Below, in pieces: positions 25,031-29,805 of a stretch of 64,000 nt of DNA. Source of the stretch: a phage. Position 1 is the stretch's first letter. Every line of letters begins with the position of its first letter. A program made the translations under genes and the position numbers. The notes under the pieces were generated by a model. The model was given only the letters and a program-made list of their open reading frames with translations, was not told the DNA's origin and did no database searches. The DNA is taken from sequence record OZ335960.1. One strand, given 5' to 3'.

Positions 25031-25033
25031 CAA

Positions 25034-25064
25034 TGGGGACCGAAAGGTCCCCATATTTTTATTT
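25034..25064 (+). terminator. Rho-independent terminator after gene 54
   Basis: TGGGGACC-GAAA-GGTCCCCA followed by TATTTTTATTT. Confidence 0.8.
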
Positions 25065-25349
25065 ACGGAATGAAATGAAAGCAGCAACTGAAGCAACTAA
25101 ACTGTCTTCAATATAAACTTCAATTTTTACCGGAGCTTCTGACTCAAATTTACCTGTTACTACACCTTGGAAAATGCTTTCAGTCTGCTCTGGCTTTGAA
25201 AAATTTTCAGAAGGAAAAATTCCGAACTTTTTATCTGTTCCAAAAATTTTGATAAATTCATCGTAAACTGCTTCATTAAAAGCGTTATCAGCAGGAATAA
25301 CGCCTTCAACTACAAGTTCTTGACCTAAAAAGCGTAAAGAAGATTTCAT
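25059..25349 (-). CDS. Hypothetical protein (alt-downstream small ORF)
   Basis: 96-aa ORF with its own early promoter and SD (GAGGA) upstream. Confidence 0.6.
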   Translation of the reverse strand: MKSSLRFLGQELVVEGVIPADNAFNEAVYDEFIKIFGTDKKFGIFPSENFSKPEQTESIFQGVVTGKFESEAPVKIEVYIEDSLVASVAAFISFRK

Positions 25350-25380
25350 TTTGTGTTCCTCATGTTATGTCAGTAAGATT

Positions 25381-25410
25381 ATTATAACACAACACGAGGG
25401 ACTTGTAAAC
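25381..25410 (-). promoter_or_regulatory. T4-type early promoter (GTTTAC - 17 bp - TTATAAT)
   Basis: Minus-strand GTTTACAAGTCCCTCGTGTTGTGTTATAAT followed by SD GAGGA and the ATG of the 96-aa ORF. Confidence 0.75.
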
Positions 25411-27467
25411 TACATCTTGAACTTTTTAGACATTCCGTTGATGTTAACCAAAGAAGCCAAGATTTGAGAAACTTCGTTTTCCTCTTCTTTTGATTCTTCT
25501 ACAAGGAATTGATTAAACCCAGCCATTGGACGAACTTCACCAGTTTCCATTAGATGATCGCCATCATATACCGATTCTTCTAATTGTTCAGAAGGAGGAA
25601 CGATTGTGCCTTCGATTAGATACTTGTTATAAGCAGTTTCTTTCATCATGTACGTGCTTACTTTATTAATCTTCAACAAAATTCCGCGCGGTAGAATAAC
25701 TTCAGCTTCTGATGGAAATCCTGATAAATGACCTGGAACGATAACTTTGATTCGCTCAGCCCCTTTAATTACCATACCTACACTAGTTTCAGAATCTTCA
25801 TTAGCATATGCAGAATGACTACCCATATGCATTAAATCTTCGGCATCAACGGAACCTTCTCCTTCACCAGAAAATACTGCACCGGAATCATCTAGAGCCA
25901 TATAGTTTTTACCATGCTCACCGAAGATATTTGGTTTAAGCGATGTTGATACGAAGTTCTTGAAATAGAACATTTTATTTTCAATATTATGACGTAAAGT
26001 TTTAAAAGTAACTTCTTGTCCACGATAAAGCGTAGTTCCTGGAGGAAGAACTGAACCTTTGGCAAAGGCAGAATCCAACGTCTCGATGTGTTTAATAGCT
26101 CGTTCCATATATTCTTCACGAGTAGAATCCGGTTTACCTAAAAGGAACGAGTTCATTTCAACATATGAATCTGCGCAATAATCTTCAATTACATCAGACT
26201 CAGCCTGAGTTAATCCTTTTGGAGTTACTTCGGTGCTTGCGTATTCATATGCCTGAGCAGCAGATTCATTAATCAATTTATAAATGCCATTCATGACAAA
26301 TTGAATAATAGCTACCTTTTCGTCTGGTGTGGCTTTAGAACCTTTAACTAAATCATTGATAATTTTCTTAATAACATCAAAGCTATTAGAAATATTAATG
26401 TCAGCGAGATCGCTCAAAATTTTATCGGTTTTATAATCAAAAAATTCTTTATTCTTTAAATATTCTTGAGAACCTTGATGTGTTATATCGCTCTGCAGTC
26501 TGATAGACGGATCACGTAAACGCACATGGGCCAATGCAATATGATTTCGGAAGCTTTCTAGTTCATAATCGCTAGATTTAAAACGAGAAGCACTTCTCAT
26601 ACCACCGATAGCTCCTTTGCCGAAGTTTGAACCAATCTGAATAACGCCAGAGTTCATTGGTCCTTCTGCTTTATATACCGGAACTTTAGATTCAAACTCT
26701 TGATATTTCTTAGCGGCGAAGCTATCACCCTGAAGTGAAGCATCAACAGTAGAATATTGAGCTTGTGCTGCTAATCGACGACTAATTTTAGTTTTCTGAA
26801 TAACAGCTTGATCCGTGCGCTTATCATTTTCTAAAGCAATAGAAGCAGCAACAGCAACAGCTTTAGGAACAGCATTACCTGTTTTAACATCTACATAAAC
26901 ATCACCAACCTTTGATTCAACTTTTGTGAATAACTCAGTTGAAATAGGAGGTACACCTGGAATGTCTTCTAAATTGGCATTTTTACGGTAAACCATAATA
27001 TATGCATACTTTTTATCGTAATCCCAGATTTCCTTTAAAAGAACATATCGACCTGCTCCTTTAGTACGTACTAAACGGTCAGCAATAACTTGCATTTGAC
27101 GAGCAGCGCCATTTGTTTTACTTTTTAGTACGCGGAATAAGCATGCATCAATTTTATACTGTTTCATTGTTTGAAGAGCAGTATCAAAAACCGCATTAAT
27201 GACACCAATTGGATTTCCACCCAAGTTTTTAAGTTTAACTAATGATAGTTTCTCATTGACACCTATCATTACGATATGCATCATTTTATCCCCTGGCTTA
27301 ACGTTTTTATTTGTATCACCGCCAGAGGTGTATGTACAAAATCTAAATCCAGGAAGCACGCTTTCTTCACCGGCTTGAATAGCAAAAATTTGAGGTATTT
27401 TATGCTTAGGATTTAAGTTAACAACCGGCGCCGAAGCGCCGTCAAATAATTCTGTAATAAGTTCCAT
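25410..27467 (-). CDS. Alt-family ADP-ribosyltransferase paralog
   Basis: 685-aa ORF; N-terminus MELITELFD almost identical to the adjacent Alt; C-terminal ART motifs: YRG (Arg), FVSTSL (STS), SEAEVILPRG (E-x-E). Confidence 0.8.
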   Translation of the reverse strand: MELITELFDGASAPVVNLNPKHKIPQIFAIQAGEESVLPGFRFCTYTSGGDTNKNVKPGDKMMHIVMIGVNEKLSLVKLKNLGGNPIGVINAVFDTALQTMKQYKIDACLFRVLKSKTNGAARQMQVIADRLVRTKGAGRYVLLKEIWDYDKKYAYIMVYRKNANLEDIPGVPPISTELFTKVESKVGDVYVDVKTGNAVPKAVAVAASIALENDKRTDQAVIQKTKISRRLAAQAQYSTVDASLQGDSFAAKKYQEFESKVPVYKAEGPMNSGVIQIGSNFGKGAIGGMRSASRFKSSDYELESFRNHIALAHVRLRDPSIRLQSDITHQGSQEYLKNKEFFDYKTDKILSDLADINISNSFDVIKKIINDLVKGSKATPDEKVAIIQFVMNGIYKLINESAAQAYEYASTEVTPKGLTQAESDVIEDYCADSYVEMNSFLLGKPDSTREEYMERAIKHIETLDSAFAKGSVLPPGTTLYRGQEVTFKTLRHNIENKMFYFKNFVSTSLKPNIFGEHGKNYMALDDSGAVFSGEGEGSVDAEDLMHMGSHSAYANEDSETSVGMVIKGAERIKVIVPGHLSGFPSEAEVILPRGILLKINKVSTYMMKETAYNKYLIEGTIVPPSEQLEESVYDGDHLMETGEVRPMAGFNQFLVEESKEEENEVSQILASLVNINGMSKKFKM

Positions 27468-27470
27468 GAT

Positions 27471-29567
27471 TTATCCTTGAACGAACTTGTAAGGCATGTT
27501 TGCAATATCTATGCAAGACGCAATAATTCCAAGAGATGATTCGACTTTCTGTTTAACATTTGATGAAACAAATGATGCAAAATCAACTCTGTCTTCTATT
27601 TCAATATCACCTGTCATTGCAACTACTTCACCAGTTTCCATTAGACGGTCACCGTCATAAATTACTGATTCGGTGAGTTCTTCCGTAGTCATAACTTCAG
27701 CTTGAATGAGTTTTGTATTATTAGATGTTGTTCCGTCATTATTAGAAGCATCAGTTATTTTATTAACTTTGACCATCAATCCGCGTGGTAGAATAACTTC
27801 AGCTTCTGTTGCTATTCCGAGACTTCCTGGATATACAACATTAACTTTATGAGCTCCATCAATTGCCCATCCTATTTGAACTTTAACGTATTCAGGATTT
27901 TCTTTATACGCTCTTATTTCATTTGGATTAATAGTTATTCCTTCTTCATTTTTATCAACTGTCAATTCATTACGAGCTTCTGGTTCTAAAAGACCAATAC
28001 CAGCATGTGTAATTCCAAAACGTCCAAAAATGATAGGAGTTAAAGAAGTAGATACAAAATTTCTGAAATAGAACACTTTATTTTTAACTAGTGCTTCGTA
28101 TATAGGAGCAGTCATACTTTGAGCACGATAAACTGTAATGCCTTCTGGTATACGGTCACCATTTTCAAAAGCTGAATCTAAGTTATTTATAGCAGATTCA
28201 ATTTCTTTTTCACTCATTACATCATATCGTTCTGGATTGTAGCGTCCTAAAAGAAGATTATTGATGTCAGTATATCCTGAACCGCAATACTCTCTAATGC
28301 CGCGCTTTTGTGATGGAGTATATTTAGAACCATCACGGGCAATAGTAATATCAATCATTGGACCTGCACCAATTCCAGAAAAGCTATAAATCATTCGTTT
28401 GAGGAATTTAGTTTTTGCTGCGTTCCAGGAATTTTTAGTTATTTCTTCCCAGACTTCATCTGGCTGTCCTTTACGGGTTTTATTATGTTTATCAAGCCAA
28501 TTATCTTTATATTCTTCAAAGAGTTGATTAACAGCTGCTGCGTATTTCTCCAAACATTTTATTGAAGTAGTTGGTTCATTTTTAATCGCATTAAGAATTA
28601 CATCTTTAATCTTTTCAGAAACTTCATCAACCTCACTTTTTGAAAAGAATTTATAATCATAGTGAAGTTCATCTGCAGTTCCTTCGGCAATGATTTTTGC
28701 TGCCTTAGTTTTAGAAGCTAGTGAATTAATTCCAAGTTTCATTTCTTCCGCTTCGGGAATTAAAGGAGCGGTAGCAGGTTTATTGAAATTAGCTGCGGTA
28801 GATTCATACTTCTGGAATAATTCACTTTCAAATCTAGAAGATTCCAATGACTGACTTTGCGCAATTGCTCTACGGGAAATTTTAACTTTAACTATTACAG
28901 CTTGATCAGAACGTTTATCGTTTTCTTGCGCAATAGATGCTGCAATTGCCTCATTTTTAGTTACTTGAGCTCCAGTATCTTTATTGATATAAACATCACC
29001 GACCTTCGATTCAACTTTAGTAAAGAGCTCGGTACTAATTTCAGGAACTCCTGGAATGTCTTCTAATGATACATTTTTGCGATGTATAAGAATATATGCA
29101 TACTTTTTATCGTAATCCCAGAGTTCCTTAAGAAGGACGTATCTGCCACCTGAACGACTACGGATAAGTCTATCAGCAATAAGTTGAATTTGACGAGCTT
29201 GACCAGCAGTTTTAGACTTAAGAATACGGAGCATGCAGGCATCAATTTTATACTGACGCATCGTCTGCATCGCAACAGTAAAAACTGAATTGATGTAATT
29301 AATTGGGCTTGGACCGAGACCTTTTAATTTAGCAATTGAACCTTTGGCAGTTAATGTAAAAGGAACAATATGCATCATTTTATCGCCCATTTTTAAATCG
29401 CGATTAGTATCACCTCCAGATGTATAGGTACATAAACGAAAGCCTGGTTGTTCAATTGCGTCATCAACATGAACTGAAAAAATTTGCGGTATTTTCTTCT
29501 TTGGATTTAAGTTTGTAATCGGAAGAGTAGTATCTTCGTCAAATAATTCTGTAATGAGTTCCATCAT
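27471..29567 (-). CDS. alt: Alt, NAD-protein ADP-ribosyltransferase (head-packaged)
   Basis: 698-aa ORF; ART motifs VYRAQ, FVSTSL, ATEAEVILPRG; located next to DNA ligase gene 30 as in T4; TATAAATA late-promoter box directly upstream. Confidence 0.85.
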   Translation of the reverse strand: MMELITELFDEDTTLPITNLNPKKKIPQIFSVHVDDAIEQPGFRLCTYTSGGDTNRDLKMGDKMMHIVPFTLTAKGSIAKLKGLGPSPINYINSVFTVAMQTMRQYKIDACMLRILKSKTAGQARQIQLIADRLIRSRSGGRYVLLKELWDYDKKYAYILIHRKNVSLEDIPGVPEISTELFTKVESKVGDVYINKDTGAQVTKNEAIAASIAQENDKRSDQAVIVKVKISRRAIAQSQSLESSRFESELFQKYESTAANFNKPATAPLIPEAEEMKLGINSLASKTKAAKIIAEGTADELHYDYKFFSKSEVDEVSEKIKDVILNAIKNEPTTSIKCLEKYAAAVNQLFEEYKDNWLDKHNKTRKGQPDEVWEEITKNSWNAAKTKFLKRMIYSFSGIGAGPMIDITIARDGSKYTPSQKRGIREYCGSGYTDINNLLLGRYNPERYDVMSEKEIESAINNLDSAFENGDRIPEGITVYRAQSMTAPIYEALVKNKVFYFRNFVSTSLTPIIFGRFGITHAGIGLLEPEARNELTVDKNEEGITINPNEIRAYKENPEYVKVQIGWAIDGAHKVNVVYPGSLGIATEAEVILPRGLMVKVNKITDASNNDGTTSNNTKLIQAEVMTTEELTESVIYDGDRLMETGEVVAMTGDIEIEDRVDFASFVSSNVKQKVESSLGIIASCIDIANMPYKFVQG

Positions 29568-29587
29568 ATCCTCTCTAGTGTTTATTC

Positions 29588-29595
29588 TATTTATA
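29588..29595 (-). promoter_or_regulatory. Late promoter box TATAAATA (alt, minus strand)
   Basis: Forward TATTTATA ~25 bp upstream of the alt start on the minus strand. Confidence 0.55.
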
Positions 29596-29600
29596 AAATT

Positions 29601-29618
29601 AAAGGCCCGAAGGCCTTT
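29601..29618 (-). terminator. Hairpin AAAGGCC-CGAA-GGCCTTT between the 62-aa ORF and alt
   Basis: Perfect 7-bp stem with tetraloop; A/T-rich flanks. Confidence 0.55.
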
Positions 29619-29805
29619 AATAATCTATTGGTAAGAGAGTACGATATATTTCAAACTTTGGGCCTTTTTCATAGGTATCAAATGTTTCTGTGAATTTATT
29701 ATAAGCATATGCATCTATAAATTCAATCATAATTTGTGACACAGAAGTAGAAACATCTCCACCTTCTTTTTGAGCCACGACAATTGTTTCTAAGTAAGCT
29801 TTCAT
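29617..29805 (-). CDS. Hypothetical small protein between gene 30 and alt
   Basis: 62-aa ORF overlapping gene 30 stop by 4 bp. Confidence 0.5.
   Translation of the reverse strand: MKAYLETIVVAQKEGGDVSTSVSQIMIEFIDAYAYNKFTETFDTYEKGPKFEIYRTLLPIDY

Follow-up and report, generated by a model that had tools for sequence, protein, structure and literature searches.

The window examined here, a 64,000-nucleotide stretch of phage DNA (sequence record OZ335960.1), contains the complete two-gene form of the Tequatrovirus alt region, namely, alt followed by its full-length paralog alt2, and both intact genes belong to the Alt family of R-S-E mono-ADP-ribosyltransferases. The existence of the pair is not news, and would not surprise a specialist, since it is already known and annotated in hundreds of genomes, and since paralogs adjoining alt were noted in 2006 for T4 (alt.-1 and alt.-2), RB49 and 44RR (Nolan et al., 2006; PMC1524935). 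What we add is that the two-gene form is the majority state, that alt2 is strongly constrained and retains all catalytic and processing features, and that T4 has only a stump of it. We propose, with a probability that we place at about 0.7, that Alt2 is a second late-made, head-packaged and injected arginine ADP-ribosyltransferase, whose targets would differ from those of Alt.

Two intact Alt-family genes

Comparison with 50,697 phage records using Megablast placed the window in Tequatrovirus, the closest record matching at 98.6% across the 4.9-kb alt locus and at no more than 97% across 24 kb. The gene order, 48, 54, alt.-3, alt2, alt, alt.1 and 30 (DNA ligase), is that of a T4-type alt locus, and from 54/alt.-3 to alt.1/30 it matches T4, T2, RB32 and others. 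Within this order, alt is syntenic with T4 alt, which sits between alt.1 and alt.-1. A preliminary description of the window had reported two adjoining large open reading frames (ORFs) of 698 aa (MMELITELFD...) and 685 aa (MELITELFD...). Their coordinates proved exact (Table 1), and to these we add the strand, missing from that description, which is the minus strand for both ORFs.

The two products were assigned to the Alt family on the basis of profile searches, with the following results. First, PF03496 (ADPrib_exo_Tox; cut-off 23.4) matched Alt with an expect value (E) of 7.5e-38 and 130 bits, and Alt2 with 4e-20 and 72 bits. Second, phrog_802 (Alt-like) matched Alt at 3.5e-272 and Alt2 at 9.1e-256, with positions 2-674 of the 674 in the profile being covered. 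Third, the Alt N-terminal domain, PF26846, is precomputed for the representative of the Alt2 cluster, which is 99% identical to the window protein and represents 772 sequences.

The motifs of the ADP-ribosyltransferase (ART) domain that had been read from the translations are present as claimed, namely, TVYRAQ (R480) in Alt and TLYRGQ (R482) in Alt2, together with FVSTSL and EAEVILPRG in both proteins. They make up the R-S-E set, with Arg on strand 1, Ser-Thr-Ser, and Glu-x-Glu in the ARTT loop. Moreover, residues R482, Q484, S507, S509, E587 and E589 of Alt2 are invariant when 20 homologs are aligned, a set that includes orthologs of Alt2, Alt of the JS10 type, T4 Alt and the window Alt, and the claim that the catalytic residues are intact thus withstood an alignment test for their loss. 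The relevance of these positions is illustrated by the E577A mutant of T4 Alt, which is catalytically dead (PMC11404850); when counted from the first ATG, E577 is the second Glu of E-x-E. Searches of PDB sequences with Alt weakly matched the CDTa/iota toxin group (15 hits, best CDTa, E from 5e-4 to 9e-3), aligning TVYRAQ with the catalytic TVYRRS of CDTa and EAEVILPRG with its EYEVLLNHG, which contains the catalytic EYE (HMMER). No Alt-family structure was present among the PDB sequence-search results for Alt and Alt2.

The AlphaFold model of Alt2 has a mean predicted local distance difference test score (pLDDT) of 72, with values mostly of 75-90 in the ART core. It consists of an N-terminal alpha/beta domain (residues ~15-215), a helical region (250-470) and the ART core (480-622), and its ends are disordered (1-11 and 629-685). 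When this predicted fold was compared with the PDB using Foldseek, matches were obtained to Vis, CDTa, Certhrax, C3bot, VIP2 and iota-like toxins, with E from 1e-6 to 1e-4, a template-modelling (TM) score of about 0.6 and a probability of 1.00, all of which refer to the predicted model.

Alt and Alt2 align over their full length with 41% identity (BLASTP, E 2e-156), which is unevenly distributed. Their N-termini had been described as almost identical, and the first nine residues are indeed so (9/9), the N-domain as a whole (residues 1-238) being 67% identical. The central regions had been said to differ, and here identity falls to 14% in the central helical region, whereas it is 37-40% in the ART core, 36% in the C-terminal tail and 11% in the insert between S-T-S and E-x-E. 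The pairwise alignment proposed in the preliminary description, with T4 Alt included, bears out both the paralogy and the correspondence of the catalytic residues. In R-S-E transferases of the C3/VIP2 family, the N-terminal helices and the loops round E-x-E contribute to substrate choice. Since the helical region and the insert are the parts that diverge between the paralogs, it is plausible that the target sets of Alt and Alt2 differ. In turn, arginine is predicted to be the acceptor for both enzymes, because the motif is E-x-E and not Q-x-E.

Conservation of alt2 and its remnant in T4

To describe the selection acting on alt2 we used nine phages, that is, the window plus ime09, T2, RB32, SH7, fPS-65, Sf24, Bas45 and RB5. 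The gene is an intact ORF of 685 codons in 9/9, with a ratio of nonsynonymous to synonymous substitution rates (dN/dS) of 0.042 at a mean dS of 0.17 (Nei-Gojobori). By region, dN/dS is 0.026 in the N-domain, 0.083 in the central region, which is the highest value, 0.029 in the ART domain and 0.012 in the tail. Thus, alt2 is under strong purifying selection, as befits a constrained protein-coding gene and not a decaying copy. Orthologs of the same length and position, 94-99% identical, are found in RB32, ime09, Bas45, Sf24 (gp47), T2 and T6. In the wider set of records, 402 phages carry at least 80% of the segment that is absent from T4, T2 and RB32 among them, and 403 encode a protein at least 90% identical to Alt2, including T6. 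The T4-type junction is unbroken in about one fifth of the matching records, a fraction estimated from an evenly spaced sample of them; natural isolates such as vB_Eco_F25, G8 and Lutter are among those with this junction. Full-length alt2 is, therefore, the majority state in the genus of T4.

The preliminary description had raised the possibility that T4 carries the same paralog, and this turned out not to be so: beside T4 alt, whose product has 682 aa, there is only the alt.-1/alt.-2 remnant. When window positions 25350-27480 were compared with the T4 segment 5030-5470 (NC_000866), alt.-1 (61 aa) and alt.-2 (67 aa) corresponded, with high identity at the nucleotide level, to the opening ~118 codons of alt2. 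T4 lacks 1,699 bp of alt2 (codons ~118 to ~684), and hence the whole catalytic domain. The ends of this deletion fall within two copies of a 9-bp direct repeat, CTAAAAAGT, which in the alt2 of the window lie at codon ~117 and 10 nt before the stop codon, respectively. A second deletion in T4, of 1 bp within an A-run, breaks the reading frame of the stump and so leaves two ORFs. In addition, phrog_23015 and phrog_15247, the families of the T4 stump, match Alt2 (2e-40 and 3e-38) better than Alt (1e-21 and 2e-19). Because of the repeat-bounded deletion and of this better match, we conclude that alt.-1/alt.-2 of T4 are the remnant of a full-length alt2 that was lost by deletion between short repeats.

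These observations bear on how the locus has been annotated. According to the T4 record, alt.-1/alt.-2 go back to an old duplication of the initial part of alt, and in the RB32 record the full gene appears, by comparison with T4, as an 'apparent insertion in alt.-2'; the junction shows the opposite polarity to the RB32 annotation, namely, a deletion in T4. Elsewhere, the gene goes by alt.-2 (RB32, ime09 and RB5), by Alt2 (Bas45) or by alt_1/alt_2, while some records label it simply as a second "Alt-like RNA polymerase ADP-ribosyltransferase". The Sf24 record describes its product as "distinct from Sf24gp48 and T4 Alt".

As for the origin of the pair, the Alt proteins of JS10 and KM16 (707 aa) are 47-48% identical to Alt2, whereas the neighbouring Alt is 41% identical to it. 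Since JS10-type Alt is closer to Alt2 than the adjacent Alt is, alt and alt2 may have separated before the genus arose, or alt2 may have passed from one genus to another.

Within Tequatrovirus the upstream gene, alt, is dimorphic, having at least two sharply diverged alleles, with one type in the window, T2 and RB32 and another in T4, SH7 and fPS-65, and window positions 27700-28860 correspond to the diverged part. The two alleles are near-identical in their first 240 and last 90 residues and 30-78% identical in between. Of the two, the T2/RB32 type is found more often (340 records), and its product in the window is 72% identical to T4 Alt, to which SH7 Alt is 96% identical. Between the two allele classes dN is 0.2, and both alleles are found alongside the same conserved alt2. 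The central and catalytic part of alt thus looks like a swapped cassette.

Predicted expression and head processing, and the proposed role of Alt2

The late box claimed upstream of the first gene is present as a match to TATAAATA (Table 1), a pattern that occurs 19 times in the window against 8.5 expected. Late box, terminator hairpin and a doubled ATGATG start are arranged alike upstream of T4 alt, which is late at both the RNA and the protein level (PMC9697503). In the window, the doubled start allows a product of 698 aa from the first ATG or of 697 aa from the second (29564), and GAGAGG lies 2 nt from the former and 5 nt from the latter. Given this spacing, and given that T4 Alt is annotated from its second ATG, the Alt of the window most likely has 697 aa and begins with MELITE.

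The gap between the two genes is of 3 nt, as had been reported, with the alt stop codon TAA at 27473-27471 and the alt2 ATG at 27467-27465. A terminator scan detected no terminator between alt and alt2, nor before 25054. Thus, the suggestion that both genes are late and co-transcribed fits the sequence, namely, the consensus match to TATAAATA, the 3-nt gap, the AAGGA site and the lack of a terminator between the genes. At the upstream end, the hairpin at 29601..29618 overlaps the alt.1 stop codon, just before the late box, and is an annotated terminator in fPS-65. The simple terminator scan missed this hairpin, which is supported by direct folding and is predicted to separate early upstream transcription from the alt unit. 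At the downstream end, the annotation of fPS-65 gives the hairpin at 25033..25054 as a terminator for both strands. An early-type promoter that serves alt.-3 starts directly after the alt2 stop codon, so marking the downstream edge of the alt-alt2 pair, and it is retained in T4 beside the deletion junction. A second exact TATAAATA is found inside alt (28184-28191, minus strand), some 720 nt upstream of alt2; it could have arisen by chance, or it could act as a late promoter within alt that feeds alt2.

T4 Alt is cut by the gp21 prohead protease at ITE-6 and LTE-619, losing 6 and 63 residues, as determined by mass spectrometry (PMC5694885). The preliminary description had taken the shared N-terminus as the region that the protease cleaves in Alt, in agreement with the ITE-6 cleavage of T4 Alt (PMC5694885), and the hexapeptide is identical in both paralogs. 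Our computed coordinates reproduce ITE-6 and LTE-619 for T4, and give ITE-6 and LTE-632 for the window Alt, and ITE-6 and LEE-631 for Alt2, where LEE-631 shares the alignment column of T4 LTE-619. The C-terminal site is followed by SV(I)YDGDxLMETGE in T4 Alt, the window Alt and Alt2. In Alt2, moreover, both E6 and E631 are invariant among the 20 homologs, and modelled disorder starts at residue 629. The aligned gp21 sites are the strongest argument at hand for our inference that Alt2 goes through the prohead.

The conserved N-terminal domain shared by the paralogs was also investigated. Modelled alone, the N-domain of Alt2 gave a pLDDT of 84.7 and a predicted TM score (pTM) of 0.83, and G83, P86, R112, G120 and R131 are invariant in 17 diverse homologs. 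No Pfam family was found for it at E up to 10, using a copy of Pfam without PF26846, and a profile of the 17 diverse N-domains retrieved nothing meaningful from PDB sequences. A reading as an acetyltransferase was considered and rejected for want of support, as the GNAT-like (CoA-binding) K-x-x-G-x-A stretch is unconserved beyond the glycine. Foldseek searches of viral models found the fold in other Alt proteins and, weakly, in large uncharacterised phage proteins, some of them with zeta-toxin, deaminase or ParB domains. At the level of sequence the outcome differed: an exhaustive HMMER search of 1.84 billion representatives returned only 69 relatives, most of 600-710 aa. Ten of the 69 were sampled, six of them being the most distant, and 7/10 have a C-terminal PF03496 while 3/10 have no Pfam match. 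A word-indexed homolog search gave only six proteins and was uninformative. These data neither confirm nor exclude the idea that the N-domain serves as a carrier joined to a variety of effectors; our guess is that it serves as a module for association with, or attachment to, the head core.

Based on the features collected in Table 1, the following scheme can be put forward. Late in infection, gp55-directed RNA polymerase would start at TATAAATA and yield one mRNA for alt and alt2, each of which would be translated from its own ribosome-binding site. Both proteins would enter the prohead core, where gp21 would cut behind ITE-6, releasing six residues from the N-terminus, and behind LTE-632 (Alt) or LEE-631 (Alt2), releasing about 54-65 from the C-terminus. 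The mature proteins, of ~70 kDa, would stay in the head and be injected with the DNA, after which each would transfer ADP-ribose from host NAD+ to arginines of host proteins. Besides RNA polymerase alpha, T4 Alt modifies a set of other proteins that includes MazF. On alpha its target is Arg265 (PMC2988021, PMC11404850). For Alt2, in contrast, the set of host targets is probably not that of Alt, since the helical region before the core and the loop-rich insert between S-T-S and E-x-E differ almost completely.

Some of our results weigh against this proposal. The literature searches, in which the 1994 paper by Koch and Rueger on alt of T2, T4 and T6 was not covered, found no virion proteomics or biochemistry for Alt2. 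A single-sequence search of PDB sequences with Alt2 gave no match, and its Pfam score is below that of Alt. The Alt2 region between S-T-S and E-x-E is modelled at a pLDDT of 55-65 and, therefore, the model says nothing on the substrate loops. T4 and roughly one fifth of its relatives live without alt2, which must be dispensable in at least some settings. Lastly, given the downstream early promoter and the internal TATAAATA, transcription could exceed one late mRNA in complexity.

One alternative is that Alt and Alt2 are redundant duplicates that both mainly modify Arg265 of RNA polymerase alpha, alt2 being a matter of dose or backup. The paralogs do share their family, the arginine-type E-x-E motif, the propeptides and much of the N-domain, T4-type phages do without alt2, and overlap on Arg265 has a precedent in Alt and ModA of T4 (PMC2988021). 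Yet the central region and the catalytic insert are only 11-14% identical while each paralog is under strong purifying selection (dN/dS 0.04), a pattern that is expected for two distinct maintained functions rather than for a drifting spare copy, and two diverged alt alleles are each accompanied by the same alt2. We thus regard redundancy as unlikely. We think it somewhat less likely still that Alt2 is active but unpackaged, acting late in the producing cell, or packaged too poorly for a role upon injection. This would agree with the negative outcome of the literature searches for its packaging, and with a capacity that may be limited, as T4 heads contain about 40 copies of Alt (PMC9958956). 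However, the N-terminal hexapeptide of Alt2 is identical to that of Alt, and its C-terminal L-x-E is aligned and followed by the conserved SV(I)YDGDxLMETGE. Conservation of the N-domain and of the disordered termini would, moreover, have no evident cause if Alt2 were never exposed to the prohead protease.

A third alternative is that Alt2 serves chiefly in the structure or scaffolding of the head core and is a pseudo-enzyme, its catalytic domain being vestigial. This idea draws on a core-protein role that has been discussed for Alt independently of its enzymatic activity (PMC11404850), and on the lower Pfam score of Alt2. It appears very improbable in view of the invariance of every catalytic residue, of a dN/dS in the ART domain that is among the lowest of the gene, and of a predicted fold with an intact ART core. 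The reading that we retain as the most likely is a second injected transferase with targets unlike those of Alt. It is tempting to speculate further, and here we are tentative, that Alt2 is an injected effector with host targets of its own; instead of RNA polymerase alpha, these might be, say, a toxin, a protein of host defence or a translation factor.

Table 1. Features of the alt locus, in window coordinates.
Feature	Coordinates	Strand	Remarks
alt	27471..29567	-	Upstream Alt-family ADP-ribosyltransferase; supported by ORF, PF03496, phrog_802, T4 Alt alignment and synteny
Ribosome-binding site of alt (GAGAGG)	29570..29575	-	5 nt from second ATG
Alt N-terminal propeptide (MELITE)	29547..29564	-	gp21 site ITE-6; cleavage shown for T4 Alt (PMC5694885)
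Alt catalytic residues	27798..28127	-	R480 28125-28127; S505-T-S507 28044-28052; E587-A-E589 27798-27806
Alt predicted C-terminal propeptide, aa 633-697	27474..27668	-	After LTE-632; context identical to T4 LTE-619
alt2	25410..27467	-	Full-length Alt paralog, 685 aa; supported by ORF, PF03496, phrog_802, orthologs, AlphaFold and Foldseek
Ribosome-binding site of alt2 (AAGGA)	27474..27478	-	Within last alt codons, 6 nt before alt2 ATG
Alt2 N-terminal propeptide (MELITE)	27450..27467	-	Predicted gp21 site ITE-6; identical to T4 Alt propeptide
Alt2 N-terminal alpha/beta domain, aa 7-238	26754..27449	-	Part conserved between paralogs
Alt2 central all-helical region, aa 239-415	26223..26753	-	Most diverged part
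Alt2 ART domain, aa 416-631	25575..26222	-	R482 26022-26024; S507-T508-S509 25941-25949; E587-A-E589 25701-25709
Alt2 predicted C-terminal propeptide, aa 632-685	25413..25574	-	After LEE-631; aligns with T4 LTE-619
T4-type late promoter box TATAAATA	29588..29595	-	20 nt upstream of first ATG of alt; consensus match only
Terminator-like hairpin (AAAGGCC-TTCG-GGCCTTT, then AATTTT)	29601..29618	-	RNA fold -14.5 kcal/mol, z -4.25
Early-type sigma-70 promoter (TTTACA, 17 nt, TG-TATAAT)	25381..25409	-	11/12 matches plus TG; annotated as predicted early in fPS-65
Bidirectional terminator hairpin	25033..25054	both	Between gene 54 (+) and alt.-3 (-); first terminator downstream of alt/alt2

Two small neighbouring genes flank the pair on the same strand. 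Just downstream of alt2, alt.-3 (25059-25349) encodes a 96-aa protein of Pfam DUF5498 and, having a strong early-type promoter of its own, would be an early gene at the tail of a late transcription unit. In T4, mutations that extend the C-terminus of the alt.-3 product allow escape from the CmdTAC defence system (PMC11618068). On the other side, alt.1 (29617-29805) encodes 62 aa that match PF24647 ('Phage blade protein', 5e-29), and its stop codon lies within the terminator hairpin.

Relation to known systems

Nearly all knowledge of injected phage ADP-ribosyltransferases rests on T4, and the biology of Alt2 has escaped study because T4 lacks alt2. If the more speculative reading given above, that of an effector with host targets of its own, is true, work on T4 has missed a protein that most T-even phages deliver at infection, as the gene was lost there through a 1.7-kb deletion. 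Whether alt2 is present or absent could then explain why T4 differs in some respects from T2/T6 in how sensitive it is to the defence systems of bacteria. Alt2 appears to be a widespread and probably injected, host-modifying enzyme, and with existing tools T2, T6 and any RB phage lend themselves to its direct study.

The closest known system is T4 Alt itself (NP_049811, 682 aa), a head-packaged and injected NAD:arginine mono-ADP-ribosyltransferase. The Alt of the window occupies the same genomic slot, between alt.1/gene 30 and gene 54, and agrees with it in the sequence around the ITE-6 and LTE cleavage sites and in the R, S-T-S and E-x-E residues. Their N-domains are 99% identical and their C-terminal propeptides 92%. 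Between these parts identity drops to 32% (central region), 71-78% (ART core) and 30% (insert), with the two alleles showing no match there at the nucleotide level. Alt2, in turn, is 41-42% identical to T4 Alt overall. The counterparts of alt2 itself are alt.-2 of RB32 and ime09, Alt2 of Bas45 (PaulHMueller), gp47 of Sf24 and the second genes of T2 and T6, all of which are orthologs with no substantial difference from the alt2 of the window.

ModA and ModB of T4 likewise modify host proteins and fall, with Alt, in the R-S-E clade of phage ADP-ribosyltransferases (PMC5512222, PMC10468400), and ModB also transfers NAD-capped RNA (PMC10468400). Unlike Alt, however, they are small, early, made after infection and unpackaged, and are without the Alt N-terminal domain or propeptides. 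Outside phages, C3 exoenzymes, VIP2, iota toxin Ia, CDTa and Vis match the Alt proteins in catalytic fold and motif geometry, with E-x-E as in the arginine-specific members, but their sequence identity is of only 14-20% and these bacterial toxins are without the head-targeting parts of the phage proteins. In the Alt proteins, moreover, about 75-80 residues separate S-T-S from E-x-E, which is roughly twice the spacing of the iota and CDTa toxins.

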